64,000 bases of DNA from an uncultured Candidatus Saccharibacteria bacterium. GTDB taxonomy: Bacteria; Patescibacteriota; Doudnabacteria; UBA920. The stretch is taken from assembly GCA_964600695.1 (NCBI GenBank), contig CAZRKK010000002.1, positions 115,900 through 179,899 of the forward strand, written 5' to 3'. Shown piece by piece: positions 6,586 to 35,210 of the stretch; position 1 is the stretch's first letter, and each line of letters starts with the position of its first letter. A program made the position numbers and the translations under genes. The notes below the pieces were generated by a model. The model searched no databases, was not told the origin of the DNA, and saw only the letters and a list, made by a program, of their open reading frames with translations.

Positions 6586-6990
6586 ATGTCAGAAGAAAAC
6601 AAGACAGTAGAAGTTCCTGCTAAGTTCGTAGAACTAGTTGGACAAATCGAAAAGCTTTCCGTATTGGAACTTTCCGAATTAGTAAAAGTTTTAGAAGAAA
6701 AGTTTGGTGTTAGTGCAGCTGCTCCTATGATGATGGGTGCTATGCCTGCTGCTGGTGGCGCTGCCGCTGCAGAAGAAAAAGATGAATTCAGTGTAGAATT
6801 AACAGCTGCTGGCGAAAGCAAGATCAATGTGATCAAAGTTGTTCGCGAAGTTACTGGTCTTGGCTTAAAAGAAGCTAAGGATATGGTAGACGGCGCTCCT
6901 CAAGTTATCAAAGAAAACGCTCCAAAAGCAGAAGCTGAAGAGTTGAAGAAGAAACTTGAAGAAGCTGGTGGTACTGTTACTCTTAAGTAA
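6586..6990 (+). CDS. rplL: 50S ribosomal protein L7/L12
   Basis: It shows an N-terminal dimerisation domain, an Ala/Gly/Pro hinge and the C-terminal [15 protein letters not shown]...TVTLK. Confidence 0.95.
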
Positions 6991-10101: not shown

Positions 10102-10156
10102 AAATAGCCAACTGTAGTTATTTGGGTTATACTAAGAAAAAATTTAAGGAGATCAT

Positions 10157-10759
10157 ATGAAAAGACTTACTATCCGTACTGGAAGAGTAGAGGCCGTTTT
10201 GGTTGGTATGTGGCAGACTGAATCAAAGACAATTGAGGTTGATTCGATAAAATGTTTTATCAACGAAGGTATTAAGGGTGATAAACATAGTATGGGTAGA
10301 GTAGGAGATGCTAGGGAAGATGCTATTAAGCACTTTGGATTACCAAAAGATATTCAAGTTGCTAACATGAGAGAATTCTCCGCTATCTCTGTGGAGGAAC
10401 TGGAAGAGATTAGCAAGAATATGTCTTTATCTGAGAGAATTCCTTTTGGATGCTTGGGGGAAAATATTGTGATAAGTGGTATTGGTGATTTTAGCAAATT
10501 ACCTCCTAATACTCAGTTATTTTTTGAAACCCCGAGTCATCAGAAGAGAGCATGCTCTTTGTTGGTGTGTGATCAAAACAATCCATGTCTTGAACCTGGT
10601 AAAAATATTGCTGAATACTTTGCAGACGAAAAACTAGCTGCTATGTTCCCAAAAGCGGCAATGGACAGGCGAGGGTTAGTAGGTATAGTTTATACTTCTG
10701 GAAAGATAAAAGTAGGCGACAAAGTTTTCGCGTATAGTTTTACAAAAACCCCTGATTGA
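10157..10759 (+). CDS. MOSC-domain protein (YiiM-like)
   Basis: A beta-barrel MOSC signature is present, including GENIVISG and conserved Cys. Confidence 0.55.
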   Translation: MKRLTIRTGRVEAVLVGMWQTESKTIEVDSIKCFINEGIKGDKHSMGRVGDAREDAIKHFGLPKDIQVANMREFSAISVEELEEISKNMSLSERIPFGCLGENIVISGIGDFSKLPPNTQLFFETPSHQKRACSLLVCDQNNPCLEPGKNIAEYFADEKLAAMFPKAAMDRRGLVGIVYTSGKIKVGDKVFAYSFTKTPD

Positions 10760-30994: not shown

Positions 30995-31145
30995 ACTAAC
31001 AATATCAAGAGTGCGGTTAGGGAACCAGCCCTGCGATCCGCCAGCAACCTAAGTCGTCATAGACTCAAGGTGCTAAGTCTGGCCCTGCTTACAGGGAAAG
31101 ATATCAATTTAAAATATCCTTCTCTTACAGCAAGAAAGGATATTT
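30995..31145 (+). promoter_or_regulatory. SAM-I (S-box) riboswitch with a terminator-type expression platform upstream of metK
   Basis: AUCAAGAGUGCGGUUAGGGAACCAGCCCUGCGAUCCGCCAGCAACC...AAGGUGCUAAGUCUGGCC matches S-box conserved blocks. It is followed by aatatcctt...aaggatattTTTTT (sequestering an AAAGGA RBS). An extended -10 tgTTATAAT sits at 30974-30981. Confidence 0.8.
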
Positions 31146-31148
31146 TTT

Positions 31149-32174
31149 ATGGCCCAGTTACGTACAGCCGAATTTGTTTCTCCTAAGCATCCAGATAAAA
31201 TCTGCGACTATATTGCAGACTGTATTCTAGATAGCTATCTTGCCCAAGACCCTCACGCTCGAGTGGCTGTAGAAGTGATGGGTGGTCACGGCCTCATTAC
31301 TCTTAACGGCGAAGTCACTAGCTCTGCCAATATAGATTGCATTCAAATAGTGCAAAGCATTGTCGGCCCAGATTATAAAGTGATAACCAACATCGCCAAG
31401 CAAAGCCTAGAGATCGCTCTCGGTGTTGATGTTGGCGGAGCAGGGGATCAAGGCATTATGATCGGCTTTGCATCCAGTAGCACTCCTAATTTTGTTCCTC
31501 TTGAATATGAACTGGCACGAAGTTTATGCCAGCAGATTTACAAAGTCTATCCATACGACGGCAAAGTTCAGGTGACGGTGGATGTTGGTGGTGGTGGCGG
31601 TGCGGGCGGCGCCGCGCTGCACTTAGCCAGCACACCCCAAGTTAAATGCGTTGTCGCTAGCTTTCAAAATTCAAAATCCAGCGACCTAGAAGCCCTTGTC
31701 CTCAGCCTTATTACCGCTGACAAGTATCTTATAAACCCAGCTGGAGAATGGCAACAAGGCGGGTTTGATGCCGACTCTGGGTTATCTGGCAGAAAGCTTG
31801 TGGTAGACGCCTATGGGCCTCACGTGGCTATTGGAGGAGGCTCCTTTAGTGGAAAAGACGCCACAAAAGTAGATCGCTCCGGCGCCTATTATGCTCGCAA
31901 AGTCGCCGTGGATTTACTAAGCAAGCACCACGCCCAAGAGGTGATTGTTAAAATCGCTTATGCTATTGGCGTTGCCGAGCCTGTGATGGCTGTCGCGTAC
32001 CTAGACGGCGTCGAACACGACATCTCTGCTCAATACGATTTTTCTCCTACAACAATCTGCCAACTTCTCGAGCTCAACAAACCCCAATTCGCCGAGCTGT
32101 GCCAGTGGGGGCACTTCGGCAATGGAAACGTGTGGGACAAACCATTCAAATATGATAATATAAAAACCTATTAA
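31149..32174 (+). CDS. metK: S-adenosylmethionine synthetase (short form, 341 aa)
   Basis: HPDKICD, GAGDQGIM and GGGSFSGKDATKVDRSGAY are present. GC ~48%. Confidence 0.85.
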   Translation: MAQLRTAEFVSPKHPDKICDYIADCILDSYLAQDPHARVAVEVMGGHGLITLNGEVTSSANIDCIQIVQSIVGPDYKVITNIAKQSLEIALGVDVGGAGDQGIMIGFASSSTPNFVPLEYELARSLCQQIYKVYPYDGKVQVTVDVGGGGGAGGAALHLASTPQVKCVVASFQNSKSSDLEALVLSLITADKYLINPAGEWQQGGFDADSGLSGRKLVVDAYGPHVAIGGGSFSGKDATKVDRSGAYYARKVAVDLLSKHHAQEVIVKIAYAIGVAEPVMAVAYLDGVEHDISAQYDFSPTTICQLLELNKPQFAELCQWGHFGNGNVWDKPFKYDNIKTY

Positions 32175-32186
32175 TAATCTAAATAT

Positions 32187-32540
32187 ATGTCTGATATAAA
32201 AGAATTAACCAATGATATCTTAGCGTTCCGAGATGAACGCGACTGGAAGCAGTTTCATAATCCAAAAGACCTAGCTATGTCATTGCTATTAGAAGCTGCG
32301 GAGGTCTTAGAGCATTTTCAGTGGAAGTCACCAGAAGAAATAGAAACTTACATCAAAACCAATAAGGAAGATATAGCGGAAGAATTAGCCGATACGCTCT
32401 ACTGGGTTTTGTTGATGAGTGCTGATTTGGATATTGATATAAAAGAAGCTTTGCAAAAGAAACAGGCAAAGAACCATGCGAAATATCCAATCGATAAAGC
32501 AAAGGGAAATCACTTAAAATATAACAAGCTTGCAGAATAA
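32187..32540 (+). CDS. MazG-like nucleotide pyrophosphohydrolase (small all-alpha NTP-PPase)
   Basis: The EExxE/D metal-binding helices EAAEVLEHFQW and EELADTLYW. Confidence 0.6.
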   Translation: MSDIKELTNDILAFRDERDWKQFHNPKDLAMSLLLEAAEVLEHFQWKSPEEIETYIKTNKEDIAEELADTLYWVLLMSADLDIDIKEALQKKQAKNHAKYPIDKAKGNHLKYNKLAE

Positions 32541-32560
32541 GTTTTAACTTATAACAATGA

Positions 32561-32586
32561 ACCGGAGTTACTTCCGGTTTTTTTGG
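32561..32586 (+). terminator. rho-independent terminator
   Basis: accggag-ttac-ttccggt is followed by TTTTTTT. Confidence 0.7.
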
Positions 32587-32672
32587 TAATAAAACTCATT
32601 TTCTTTGCGCAGAACAAATTCAGTTTTTCTTTATATAAAACTTGGTAAATCTTTATCTGTTCTTGAATAGGG

Positions 32673-33347
32673 TTGTGTTATCGTAATTTTATGACCAAGA
32701 ATTTTACCCCTATAGATAATATAGAAGAGCTGGATTACAAAATATATTTTTTGCGTGGTCGTCGAGTTATGCTCGACCGAGATTTAGCCTTGCTTTATGG
32801 AGTCTCTACGAAAGTATTAAATCAATCTGTAAAACGAAATATTTCTCGTTTCCCAGAAGATTTTATGTTTCAACTTACAAAAGAAGAGGAAAAATATATA
32901 TCTTTGAGGTCACAATTTGTGACCTCAAACGACGAAAATGGCTTAGATAAAGCAAACTTGAAGTCACAAATTGTGACTTCAAGTAATGAAGAGATTTTGA
33001 GGTGCCAAAATGGTACCTCAGAACAGGTTGCGGTTTTGAGGTCGCAAATTGCGACTTCAAGATTAGGTTATGGTGGAAGAAGGAAACTACCTTACGCCTT
33101 CACCGAACAAGGCGTCGCCATGCTTTCTTCAGTCCTAAAAAGCGAGCGGGCGATTCAAGTTAATATTCAAATTATGAGAACTTTTACAAAAATTCGTGAA
33201 ATGTTGGTTAGTAGCAAAGAACTCCGAGAAAAAATCAACGAGTTAGAGGAAAAATACGATCAGCAGTTTGCGGAAGTGTTCACTGCCATAAATTTATTAC
33301 TAGAACCACCAGAACAACCAAAACCTAAAATTGGTTTTAAAACTTAA
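32673..33347 (+). CDS. ORF6N/KilA-N-like DNA-binding domain protein with an in-frame repeat insertion
   Basis: [46 protein letters not shown] matches the ORF6N domain. The central region is LRSQFVTS / LKSQIVTS / LRSQIATS. Confidence 0.6.
32904..33060. repeat. array of four ~25-bp palindromes (12-bp half-site TTGAGGTCACAA type) inside the ORF6N coding sequence
   Basis: ttgaggtcacaatttgtgacctcaa (32904-32928), ttgaagtcacaaattgtgacttcaa (32958-32982), ttgaggtgccaaaatggtacctca (32997-33020) and ttgaggtcgcaaattgcgacttcaa (33036-33060). Confidence 0.7.
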
Positions 33348-33847
33348 ATAATCTCAGTATCAGAAACTTTAGTTTTAGTAGCACGAGAATAAATTATTCC
33401 ACTAATAATTGCACTGAGTAAAAAGATAGTCGCACCTGTAAAACAAGGAGTTAAAAATGGGTTGGTGATTGGTGTGCCAGAACACCCAAGTGCTGGGCCA
33501 GAACGCACGCTGTAATAAGCGACGAATTCACGAGCCACATTGAACCATGCAAAAATAGTTCCTGCAGAAGTGAACCACCATAGGTAGTGTTGCCACTTAA
33601 TTTGTTTGGCTTGATCCTGTGATTTATATATCAACACAGACCAAACTAGGGCTACCAAAAAACCAATAGCTCCGTAAAAACAAGCTTCCGTGACAGGGTT
33701 AGGTATGACACAATCTTGAATCTTGAAGATAGTGCCTTCGTAGCCATAAAACTTGGCAAAGTTTTTTATGACGTTATACCACGCAAATACTGTCCCTGCG
33801 GCCAGTAACAACGTTTGAATTGTGAGGAACTTTTTTAAATTGATCAT
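33344..33847 (-). CDS. membrane protein made of two tandem ~80-aa 2-TM repeats, each with a conserved Cys pair
   Basis: The internal duplication is FAWYNV...C..C / FAWFNV...C..C. Confidence 0.45.
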
Positions 33848-33994
33848 ACCTTAATTATACTCCTATATTAAAAACGCCTAAACAGGCGTTTTAATTTTGT
33901 GCTAGTCTTATCTGGGTTAATTGACAAACACCAATGAACATAGTATTATTGAACATAAATCTCACAAGGTTTAATCAAATTCCAGGGAGGGAAT

Positions 33995-34561
33995 ATGACA
34001 GGAACTACAATTACACAATCCGTAAAGGACACCATTTTTCTTGGTATAAATGACCCAAGTAATTTTAACTCAGTTTTACTGCTCACTAAAAAATTTCCGG
34101 ACTCGGAGTTAATTCTTAATTCTTGGTACCGCGCGATAACCGATAATTTGGTGTTAGATAAAGAGCTGTGGATTAATCCAGAAGTTGAACCGCTCTTCTA
34201 TTTCAAAACTAGCATTGCAGGCTTAATCGAATGCCCTCTAGGAATGAGTTACAGTAATCGACACTTTCCAAGTTATGAACTTCATTTTCGTATTAATGGA
34301 GTTAAGCCAAACTTAGCAGCTGATAAAATCTTCAGCTTACATCTCTTAGGTGAGTCAACTAAGCCGGCTGGCCCAAATAGATTACGTAGTAGTTACAGGC
34401 CGTATAATACATCAGGGTCTAACTATAATGGTGAGTACATACAAATAAGGTGGCAGGCCGAGATGACTCAATTCGAAATGGATGTGATGGATAATAACGA
34501 TATCAAAGAATTGCTAAATTATCGTTACCCAGAAATATATTTGTGGTTGCACGAAAGTTAA
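33995..34561 (+). CDS. hypothetical protein (188 aa)
   Basis: Promoter TTGACA...TAGTAT at ~33920-33950 and a terminator at 34568-34592. Confidence 0.5.
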   Translation: MTGTTITQSVKDTIFLGINDPSNFNSVLLLTKKFPDSELILNSWYRAITDNLVLDKELWINPEVEPLFYFKTSIAGLIECPLGMSYSNRHFPSYELHFRINGVKPNLAADKIFSLHLLGESTKPAGPNRLRSSYRPYNTSGSNYNGEYIQIRWQAEMTQFEMDVMDNNDIKELLNYRYPEIYLWLHES

Positions 34562-34601
34562 ACACTTAGACGAGAAACTCTCGTCTTTTTATTTTGTAAA
34601 T

Positions 34602-35210
34602 CTACAGCATAACTCGAGTGACCATATTACCAAATTTTAAACGCTTCCTAAATACCACTGCGATTAAAATTAGATTAACTAAAATTAAATATACTTGGAA
34701 TGCTGAGTTTTCTATATTCCAATGAGTTATCGATGGAATTACTAACAGTACGCTAAATAGACTCATTATATAAGTGAATACAGTCTCCGTTTCTGGGAAT
34801 TTCCAGGCTTTGATAATAGTTGGTAATGCTGCAAAGCCATCACCGATGGCCGCTAATAAAATAGCATATATGGGGGAGTCAATAATCAACCAAATTCCTA
34901 AAGCAAGAATAGAACAAAGTCCACATAGTATATCAAATATAGTAATCTTCCAGTGGCTTTGTGGATTGATAAATGCACTTATCAGAACTAATAACGGCAA
35001 AAAGCCAGCTAGAAAAATTCTAACAACTACCCAAGGATCTGCGTGCGCAGAAATAGCCGCCGCCGCGCCAATTAAGGGTGCTAACGTCCACATGGACCAA
35101 GTTACAAGATTTGGTTTGGTCTTACCTTTTAAGGTATCTCGGATGTACACGGAGACGCCAGGGATAATAATTAACGCGCTTATGATAACTAAGATGTGTT
35201 CCCAGCTCAT
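34602..35210 (-). CDS. polytopic membrane protein (about 6 TM)
   Basis: Hydrophobicity pattern. Confidence 0.5.
   Translation of the reverse strand: MSWEHILVIISALIIIPGVSVYIRDTLKGKTKPNLVTWSMWTLAPLIGAAAAISAHADPWVVVRIFLAGFLPLLVLISAFINPQSHWKITIFDILCGLCSILALGIWLIIDSPIYAILLAAIGDGFAALPTIIKAWKFPETETVFTYIMSLFSVLLVIPSITHWNIENSAFQVYLILVNLILIAVVFRKRLKFGNMVTRVML

Follow-up and report, generated by a model that had tools for sequence, protein, structure and literature searches.

The window analysed here, 64,000 nucleotides (nt) from contig CAZRKK010000002.1 of an uncultured Candidatus Saccharibacteria bacterium, contains an ORF6N (KilA-N-like) gene at 32691-33347 on the forward strand, which carries four in-frame 25-nt palindromes at 32904-33060, each with a 1-nt centre and arms of 12-14 nt. 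Four dyads in the ORF6N frame, spaced 39-54 nt apart, had been described in the original prediction. Their coordinates and sequences are confirmed, copy 3 being weaker than the others. The gene and its palindromes are listed below.

32691-33347, + strand: ORF6N-domain gene, 218 amino acids plus stop (Pfam PF10543; AlphaFold2 model)
32904-32928: palindrome copy 1, 25-mer TTGAGGTCACAATTTGTGACCTCAA = TTGAGGTCACAA-T-TTGTGACCTCAA, perfect, encodes LRSQFVTS
32903-32929: copy 1 extended, TTTGAGGTCACAA-T-TTGTGACCTCAAA, perfect 13-nt arms, close to the N-side site of the ancestral copy in the family
32958-32982: palindrome copy 2, 25-mer TTGAAGTCACAAATTGTGACTTCAA = TTGAAGTCACAA-A-TTGTGACTTCAA, perfect, encodes LKSQIVTS
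32956-32984: copy 2 extended, ACTTGAAGTCACAA-A-TTGTGACTTCAAGT, perfect 14-nt arms
32996-33020: palindrome copy 3, TTGAGGTGCCAAAATGGTACCTCA(G) = TTGAGGTGCCAA-A-ATGGTACCTCA, the weakest, 9 Watson-Crick and 2 G.T pairs of 11, encodes LRCQNGTS
33036-33060: palindrome copy 4, TTGAGGTCGCAAATTGCGACTTCAA = TTGAGGTCGCAA-A-TTGCGACTTCAA, 10 Watson-Crick pairs and 1 G.T of 11, encodes LRSQIATS, adjoins the C-side family motif

The start-to-start spacing of the four copies is 54, 39, and 39 nt, each a multiple of 3. Copy 2 differs from copy 1 by a compensated exchange of a G-C for an A-T pair, copy 4 shows a compensated change to CGC/GCG, and copy 3 carries TGCC/GGTA in place of the TCAC/GTGA core. Across the array, the compensated differences read GGTCAC/GTGACC, AGTCAC/GTGACT, and GGTCGC/GCGACT.

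Not a single match to the 25-mer appears in 100 dinucleotide-preserving shuffles of the window, and the half-site occurs six times as compared to 1.39 expected occurrences; a chance origin of the array is excluded. The 176-nt array stretch folds as four hairpins (z = -10.8 for DNA, -11.0 for RNA). No copy of the palindrome is found outside the ORF6N gene in the 64-kb window. The other strong 25-nt palindromes of the window all lie outside the array, and the clearest of them are terminator-like hairpins flanked by A and T. The repeats of the array are non-identical, are separated by spacers of 14-29 nt, and lie in frame within a gene, which sets them apart from a CRISPR array. As no T run follows any of the four copies, they do not resemble intrinsic terminators either. 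A near-perfect inverted repeat with both arms inside an intact open reading frame (ORF) that is conserved in syntenic orthologues, the element classifies as a coding palindrome.

Conservation of the palindrome and the level of constraint

ORF6N proteins abound in phages and plasmids, in defence islands, and in the genomes of candidate phyla. A homology search yielded at least 8000 relatives, whose motif copy number starts at 1 and reaches at least 4: a single copy is the basic state of the family, and many members have 2-4. We fetched the DNA of 80 ORF6N genes from one-genome-per-species contigs, using the peptide patterns RFPxDFMF and AIxVNIQIM, which avoid the motif. The sampled genomes span more than 15 phyla, among them Omnitrophota, Nitrospirota, Patescibacteria, Proteobacteria, Bacteroidota, Acidobacteriota, and Planctomycetota, with GC contents of 29-68%. 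In 64 of 77 genes, the arms at a fixed distance from the protein anchor form at least 9 of 12 Watson-Crick pairs, and the palindrome is perfect in 27. Arm pairing reaches position 13 (T-A 33, C-G 29), extends partly to positions 14-15, and is at background level from position 16. The innermost pair is less conserved than the others (64%), which fits a 3-nt hairpin loop or a relaxed dyad centre. In those genes with a decayed first copy that were inspected, a perfect copy is located slightly downstream.

Pooling the genome and viral sets gave 127 distinct ORF6N genes, all retrieved by peptide patterns off the palindrome. The best palindrome between the anchors reaches 8 of 11 pairs in 5 genes, 9 in 17, 10 in 45, and 11 in 60, whereas equal-length control stretches of the same genes peak at 6-7 pairs and attain 9 or more in only 4 of 254 cases. 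Loss of the palindrome is not seen in any of the 127 genes. The element, present in almost every ORF6N gene, is a 25-31 base-pair (bp) palindrome about 200-240 nt into the coding sequence with a nearly constant core, T..CAA.TTG..A, while the remaining arm positions vary, jointly on both arms. It is a cis-acting DNA element of the whole ORF6N family, with one copy ancestral at a fixed site of the domain; that it is a conserved DNA palindrome and no protein repeat is very well supported.

This distribution speaks against the earlier idea of an insertion resembling a miniature inverted-repeat transposable element (MITE) and tolerated inside a coding sequence. The basal copy is present in 127 of 127 genes at its fixed domain site, only the number of extra copies varies, and the element is dispersed neither in the window nor in the 5-kb flanks of the 80 loci. 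The extra copies alone are lineage-specific amplifications, common to syntenic orthologues. A BLAST search of 50,697 phage records with a 31-nt palindrome gave four unannotated matches. In the literature searched on ORF6N and on KilA-N with palindromes, judged by titles, abstracts, and KilA-N mentions, we found no description of the element.

Several observations indicate that the constraint acts on the nucleic acid rather than on the peptide. In the fixed-offset alignment, 90.1% of the cells are paired as compared to 72.1% in shuffles (0 of 500 reach the observed value), and pairing drops to 45% or less if the partners are slid by 1-3 columns. Of the 14 pairs, 11 show changes on both sides, and double-change cells number 190, where 60 would be expected. 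The codons of the site deviate strongly from those of the long ORFs of the same loci, which served as background: Leu is encoded by TTG in 45 of 55 cases (background 16%), Arg by AGR in 41 of 42 (19%), Gln by CAA in 53 of 56 (40%), and Ser by TCA in 46 of 52 (13%). Even at loci with a GC content of at least 55%, all 22 Ser codons are TCA, against 10% in the background.

The encoded residues also change in pairs. S goes with V (TCA/GTG) or A (TCG/GCG), K with I (AAA/ATT), and F, C, and Y go with G (TTC/GGA, TGC/GGC, and TAC/GGT, respectively), while the outer residues alternate between L....S, S....L, and W....S. This residue covariation matches exactly what base pairing between the arms predicts. 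In Treponema saccharophilum, the otherwise constant C-G pair beside the centre is altered on both sides (TCGAAAATTTCGA, encoding LRSKISTS). Furthermore, subfamilies that read the site in frame +1 (ELVTNCD, VVANCDH, VVENFDH, and EVIKKFDNL) keep the palindrome. Thus, AACTGGTCACAAATTGTGACCAGTT encodes ELVTNCDQ in gut-phage contigs and one Melainabacteria genome, AGGTAGTCGCAAATTGCGACCACCT encodes VVANCDH on a Legionella fallonii plasmid, and GTGGTCGAAAATTTCGACCAC (VVENFDH) and GAGGTTATCAAAAAATTTGATAACCTC (EVIKKFDNL) are found on two tiny Segatella copri plasmids.

Taken together, the covariation, the rare codons forced at the site, and the persistence of the palindrome in a second reading frame bear out the assignment of the dyads to a DNA-level element instead of a peptide repeat. 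Homologues with the peptide and without the palindromy, which would have pointed to a protein repeat, did not turn up; the reverse is seen, with palindromy in 127 of 127 homologues. The homologues carry the peptide because they carry the palindrome, and the family signature "LRSQIVTS" is set by the symmetry of the DNA and not by a need of the protein.

The mismatch spectrum bears on the question of DNA or RNA. On the sense strand, coding copies contain 30 G.T/T.G and 66 A.C/C.A mismatches, and non-coding copies 42 and 30 (p = 0.19). The excess of A.C in coding copies is due to synonymous AGA/AAA codons. As none of three data sets displays a sense-strand excess of G.T over A.C, the constraint looks strand-symmetric, as expected for duplex or cruciform DNA or for a strand-symmetric mutational process, and the signal looks to reside at the DNA level rather than in a sense-strand RNA hairpin. 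An Rfam scan of positions 31000-35000 with E-values up to 10 returned no family for the hairpins; the one overlap is a chance microRNA match (20.9 bits as compared to a gathering score of 230).

Flanking and orphan copies, and array dynamics

Over all fetched loci, ORF6N genes contain 198 palindromes, which concentrate sharply at 210-240 nt from the N-terminus. Besides these, 46 copies are located upstream, mostly 18-90 nt before the N-terminus, and 18 copies downstream, 17-300 nt after the stop. If the core is left unconstrained, perfect palindromes with 10-bp arms reach densities of 0.77 per kb upstream and 0.32 per kb downstream, as compared to 0.04 per kb in control DNA, and 30 of 32 of these non-coding flank palindromes have a CA(A/G)N(T/C)TG centre. 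The base profile of the non-coding copies equals that of the coding copies. On Butyrivibrio pCY186, a copy 29 nt upstream of the start shares the unusual arms of the internal copy, and on a Legionella pneumophila plasmid a copy 18 nt after the stop matches the internal one. A locus-specific "code" between flank and internal copies was considered and dropped, since the closeness within a locus is not significant in spite of these striking single cases.

Among 182 palindromes found in a scan of metagenome contigs, 127 lie in ORF6N frames, 37 within 400 nt of one, and 4 farther away, while 14 belong to loci without an ORF6N gene. Those orphans that are not near a contig end occupy intergenic DNA between unrelated genes. 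Likewise, in the 80 loci with 5-kb flanks most extra copies are in or beside ORF6N genes or their paralogues, and a few (e.g., at L002, L008, L025, and L047) are 1-5 kb away from the ORF6N gene. In a pattern scan of viral contigs, about 10 of 25 matches are intergenic hairpins between A and T runs in AT-rich contigs. Such look-alike hairpins in AT-rich phage contigs are probably chance terminators.

Some of these loci deserve mention in their own right. At L024 (5639-5920), the interval from the ORF6N stop to a convergent topA gene holds six non-coding palindromes spaced with a period of 51 nt; they differ from each other, each of them is palindromic, and a parB-like gene is located upstream. 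L222 contains a 98-nt direct repeat (6616-6713 and 10108-10205, 87% identity) with a palindrome at its head. The repeat runs into promoter-like TTGAAT-N17-TATAAA and an ATG, no ORF6N gene is found within 14 kb, and between the two repeats lies an island of 3.5 kb whose genes include MarR-like, Abi_2, and NUDIX-like ones (the NUDIX-like assignment being made by eye from sequence). The exact 21-nt core GAGGTCACAANTTGTGACCTC occurs as terminator-like intergenic hairpins in AT-rich viral contigs without ORF6N (L081, L083-L088, L092, and L103), which may be chance look-alikes or relatives of the element.

Two syntenic orthologues of the window gene (77-82% protein identity; same metK/MazG-like or downstream neighbours) possess the four copies at corresponding positions. 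Among the three genes, hardly any difference is seen in the spacer that follows copy 1 (GACGAAAATGGCTTAGAT...) or in the coding sequence downstream. All four copies, by contrast, differ among the orthologues by compensated changes. The left arm of copy 1 reads TTGAGGTCACAA in the window and TCAAGGTCGCAA and TCAAGGTACCAA in the two orthologues, and copy 2 reads ..GTCACAA, ..GTCGCAA, and ..GTTCCAA, respectively, with matching right arms. The inner dinucleotide tends to be common within a genome (CG, CG, CA, CG in one orthologue as compared to AC, TC, CA, AC in the other). The palindromes thus change more rapidly than the sequence around them, symmetrically in every case and to some extent in concert, which is the signature of template switching and/or gene conversion. 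A check for helical phasing gave array spacing modes of 39-42 and 51-54 nt without a strict period.

A mosaic gene was noticed within the family. P0069 is nearly identical to P0041 and P0025 over residues 1-35 (about four differences) and identical in the C-terminus from PYAFTE onwards, while its middle part (residues ~36-92), including the palindrome, is replaced by another variant. P0069 could be the product of recombination among family members or an assembly chimera. A recombination breakpoint at the palindrome was not adopted, as this is a single mosaic and its breakpoints are not clearly at the palindrome. The proposal of a recombination hotspot finds weak support: behind it stand just the variable copy number and this one gene.

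Host protein, genomic context, and candidate functions

The window protein matches PF10543 with 118.9 bits (cut-off 27.8, E = 1.2e-34), the array splitting the match into two stretches, and a hidden Markov model built from homologues gives a single ORF6N match in the window. According to the AlphaFold2 model, the protein consists of an N-terminal DNA-binding-type domain, a palindrome-encoded loop, and a C-terminal long-helix or coiled-coil region. Two further features overlap the array.

32922-33062, + strand: loop codons 78-124 (copies 2-4 with spacers), AlphaFold2 predicted local distance difference test (pLDDT) <50, inside the ORF6N domain
32875-33060, - strand: antisense ORF of 61 amino acids that mirrors the peptide motif

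The loop of codons 78-124, which is bordered by well-predicted portions of the domain, is presumably disordered, and by this prediction the extra copies in the window add about 45 disordered residues. In the AlphaFold2 model of a single-copy relative, the motif forms a helix end and a short loop (pLDDT ~54). As a predicted loop or helix end of low confidence, the encoded peptide (N)L-R-S-Q-I-V-T-S(-S-W) is largely a passenger of the DNA. The antisense ORF does exist as first described, but it is a by-product of the palindromes and not a gene: among 33 arrays, the antisense frame is open in just 18, with stops at 4.5% of the spacer codons as compared to 6.2% in controls. An antisense gene or an in-frame inversion ("shufflon") was discarded because the frame is not kept open in other arrays.

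The neighbours of the window gene are metK, a MazG-like gene, and a gene for a membrane protein. A SAM riboswitch (RF00162, 31002-31104, + strand; 50.4 bits, gathering score 44.4, E = 8e-10) lies directly 5' of the S-adenosylmethionine synthetase gene (31149-32174). Downstream of the MazG-like gene (32187-32540), the hairpin AACCGGAGTTACTTCCGGTT followed by a T run (32557-32585, + strand) resembles an intrinsic terminator that separates this gene from the ORF6N gene.

At a number of loci, ORF6N genes are found in mobile or defence-island DNA without a fixed partner. An all-against-all BLAST comparison of 146 neighbours revealed no recurrent conserved partner gene. Only small clusters emerge, comprising a Mg-chelatase/ComM-like gene (4 loci), tandem ORF6N paralogues (4 loci), and restriction-modification (R-M) genes. 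The ComM/YifB-like Mg-chelatase gene adjoins ORF6N in 4 of 77 loci (L005, L017, L023, and L066) and is the only non-ORF6N neighbour in more than two. At three loci (Treponema saccharophilum plasmid pTS1, L312; L026; L032), ORF6N lies in or beside type I R-M loci with the arrangement methyltransferase, winged helix-turn-helix protein, ORF6N, and S subunit. Other neighbours are integrases, a Tn3 transposase, and IS3, as well as Fic- and YhcG/DUF1016-like genes recognised by eye from sequence motifs. Two Segatella copri plasmids (L307, NZ_CP152354.1, 2955 bp; L308, NZ_CP152486.1, 4140 bp) have two annotated genes each, a replication initiator (Rep) and ORF6N, and carry a palindrome at the homologous site with a different sequence in frame +1. 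That these plasmids code for nothing but Rep and an ORF6N protein is suggestive, but no more.

Any explanation has to account jointly for three facts: the universal retention of the palindrome, its constant core with covarying arms, and the copies in the leader and trailer of the same gene. The reading we prefer, tentatively and well short of confidence, takes the palindromes as putative binding sites of a dimeric protein, probably ORF6N itself, whose symmetry would be maintained by selection together with template switching. Each palindrome would be bound by such a dimer. ORF6N is the likeliest candidate because of its DNA-binding-type N-terminal domain and its long helical, coiled-coil-like C-terminal region, and the recognition site would then be part of the gene for the protein that binds it. 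Autoregulation could result from this internal site in combination with optional ones in the 5' leader or 3' trailer, or the sites could nucleate a multi-protein complex, and a four-copy array might act as a multivalent platform, like the iterons in the lambda O gene for the O protein. The core would be read by the protein, whereas the other positions may be kept symmetric by template switching or gene conversion within the palindrome, helped by selection for an extrudable or symmetric site. The operator-like, autoregulatory platform that was originally suggested hence stays our best guess as a prediction, to which the leader and trailer copies of ORF6N genes lend indirect support.

A number of observations weigh against this assignment. 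Leader or trailer copies occur in only ~10-20% of the genes, and flank copies are not significantly closer to the internal copy at the same locus than to internal copies elsewhere (2.65 and 2.88 differences per half-site, respectively; p = 0.11). Arm positions differ among the copies of one gene, so that a single sequence-specific dimer cannot read all of them; the symmetry of the unread positions consequently calls for a second cause. The constant core spans ~13 bp round the dyad, a short stretch to accommodate two helix-turn-helix contacts in neighbouring major grooves. A fold search of the AlphaFold2 model against the PDB gave nothing at E <=0.001 that would confirm a dimeric DNA binder; the weak top matches are winged-helix DNA binders (Ski/Dachshund and RacA). 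Finally, neither a replicon context nor a clear AT-rich unwinding region is evident beside the array in the window. The GC content falls to 20% at 32860-32899, just upstream of the array, and equally AT-rich stretches are present elsewhere in the window.

Two of the rival explanations place the constraint on a gene product. A pure protein repeat, in which LRSQxVTS would be a structural or functional peptide and the symmetry of the DNA incidental, could draw on the position of the motif within the Pfam ORF6N profile and its near universality in the family. We consider it extremely improbable, as synonymous codons are fixed against genomic usage, residues change in the pairs that base pairing predicts, the palindrome persists in another frame as well as in non-coding DNA, and the peptide is predicted to be a loop or disordered. 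An RNA hairpin in the ORF6N messenger RNA, controlling its stability, processing, or translation and perhaps bound by ORF6N, has more in its favour: leader, internal, and trailer copies would all be part of the ORF6N transcript, the RNA form of the stems is very stable, the two imperfect window copies carry G.U on the sense strand, and a constant loop with closing pairs on top of a covarying stem is reminiscent of protein-bound RNA hairpins. Nonetheless, it seems improbable given a family-wide mismatch spectrum without G.U excess, the missing Rfam match, and orphan copies upstream of promoter-like sequences of other genes (L222); moreover, the stems are not followed by a U-tract and hence are not terminators.

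The remaining rivals operate on the DNA itself. A coding palindrome without function may have arisen or inserted once in a permissive loop of the ancestral ORF6N gene and then perpetuated itself, its symmetry being renewed by replication template switching and gene conversion and its extra copies being generated by slippage. Compensated changes that outpace the divergence of the flanks in close orthologues, the partial homogenisation of array copies, strand-symmetric mismatch types, and a load of ~0.6-0.8 mismatches per palindrome, which fits a balance of mutation and correction, are all in line with this scenario. Template switching is known to keep inverted repeats perfect (PMC5941160, PMC8794818), and perfect coding palindromes coexist with functional proteins (PMC6649704). 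We still regard it as unlikely. Not a single loss is found in 127 genes, the placement of extra copies, in the leaders and trailers of ORF6N genes, is not random, and such a generic mechanism predicts many gene families of this kind, none of which is described in the literature searched. The core T..CAA.TTG..A is constant in non-coding copies as well while the other positions drift, for which a symmetry-keeping mutational process alone is insufficient. Alternatively, a structure-specific DNA element, extruded as a cruciform or single-strand hairpin, could be used by host or mobile-element machinery independently of ORF6N binding, be it for replication priming, for recombination or resolution, or to mark the insertion or excision of an ORF6N cassette. 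Its perfect dyads with 1-nt centre and AT-rich middle are ideal for extrusion, and in distant clades it is the palindromy, not the sequence, that survives (TCGAAAATTTCGA in Treponema, GTGGTCGAAAATTTCGACCAC in S. copri). Intergenic orphans between housekeeping genes could be scars, ORF6N genes often sit beside integrases, transposases, and R-M genes, and copy number variation and the mosaic gene point in the same direction. However, no conserved partner gene is found, neither target-site duplications nor element ends were recognised, and a fixed intragenic position is hard to explain as the end of an element, which makes such an element quite unlikely.

A further variant, which we find doubtful, combines structure recognition with the preferred idea of ORF6N as the binder: ORF6N proteins might bind hairpins or cruciforms, with the ligand located in the very gene of the binder, and the family would be defined by a DNA structure no less than by a protein fold. 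If true, this would be a self-marking module of mobile DNA that has not been described before, in which an extrudable element with a short constant core, under selection across phyla, phages, and plasmids, overrides codon usage, amino-acid identity, and reading frame.

Significance and comparison with known systems

The palindrome that travels with the gene is the first concrete candidate for what the ORF6N protein recognises. It also calls for caution in protein-family analysis, since a "conserved motif" in Pfam and its residue covariation can stem from the symmetry of the DNA. For molecular evolution, it provides a natural case in which palindrome selection or template switching meets coding constraints over very deep time.

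The closest likeness is to the iterons in the O genes of lambdoid phages. In both cases, the gene of a DNA-binding protein (a predicted one for ORF6N) contains several in-frame sites of dyad symmetry in its middle part; the iterons code for a linker dispensable for DNA contact, and the ORF6N array for a loop with pLDDT <50. The number of iterons varies and alters the length of O, from four in lambda to six in Stx phages, which adds 13 residues (PMC7466680). In contrast to ORF6N, however, the iterons of one phage are almost alike in sequence, and their binding by O is proven. The ORF6N copies differ, with compensation: in the window they deviate from each other at arm positions 5, 8, and 9 and at the respective partners, and other arrays behave likewise, so that no recognition sequence is shared. 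Most ORF6N genes, moreover, are single-site, ORF6N is unrelated to O as we read the Pfam result, and no replication module or clear AT-rich region is evident beside the ORF6N array of the window.

Palindromic protein-binding sites within ORFs are exemplified by lac O2 in lacZ, gal OI in galE, and parS inside spo0J/parB. Intragenic operators sometimes reside in the binding protein's own gene and can cooperate with a promoter-proximal site. Unlike the ORF6N palindrome, intragenic operators and parS are conserved in sequence within a narrow group and impose no family-wide peptide signature. To our knowledge, neither a covariation of the arms across phyla nor a conservation independent of the reading frame has been described for such sites.

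Nematomorpha mitochondria contain perfect inverted repeats within functional genes, both arms of which are coding (PMC6649704). As in ORF6N, the protein sequence is in compromise with a DNA or RNA structure. Yet the nematomorph repeats are many, long (up to 284 bp), scattered over mitochondrial genes, and confined to one animal group, while ORF6N genes have a single short palindrome at one fixed site, with a constant core and extra copies in the flanks. Rickettsia palindromic elements, repetitive extragenic palindromic (REP) sequences, and MITEs are hairpin-forming DNA that is tolerated in frame, usually in surface loops. Such elements come in tens to hundreds of dispersed copies, and one orthologue may have a copy that another lacks, whereas the ORF6N palindrome is undispersed and ancestral.

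Inverted repeats shaped by template switching have homogenised arms that change on both sides at once (PMC5941160, PMC8794818, PMC8604942). As a mutational mechanism, template switching explains the symmetry of the ORF6N palindrome, but not its constant core, its universal retention, or its placement. Compared with known intragenic sites, the ORF6N palindrome is unusual in its phylum-wide conservation, in a covariation that shapes a Pfam signature, in its independence of the reading frame, and in its variable copy number.

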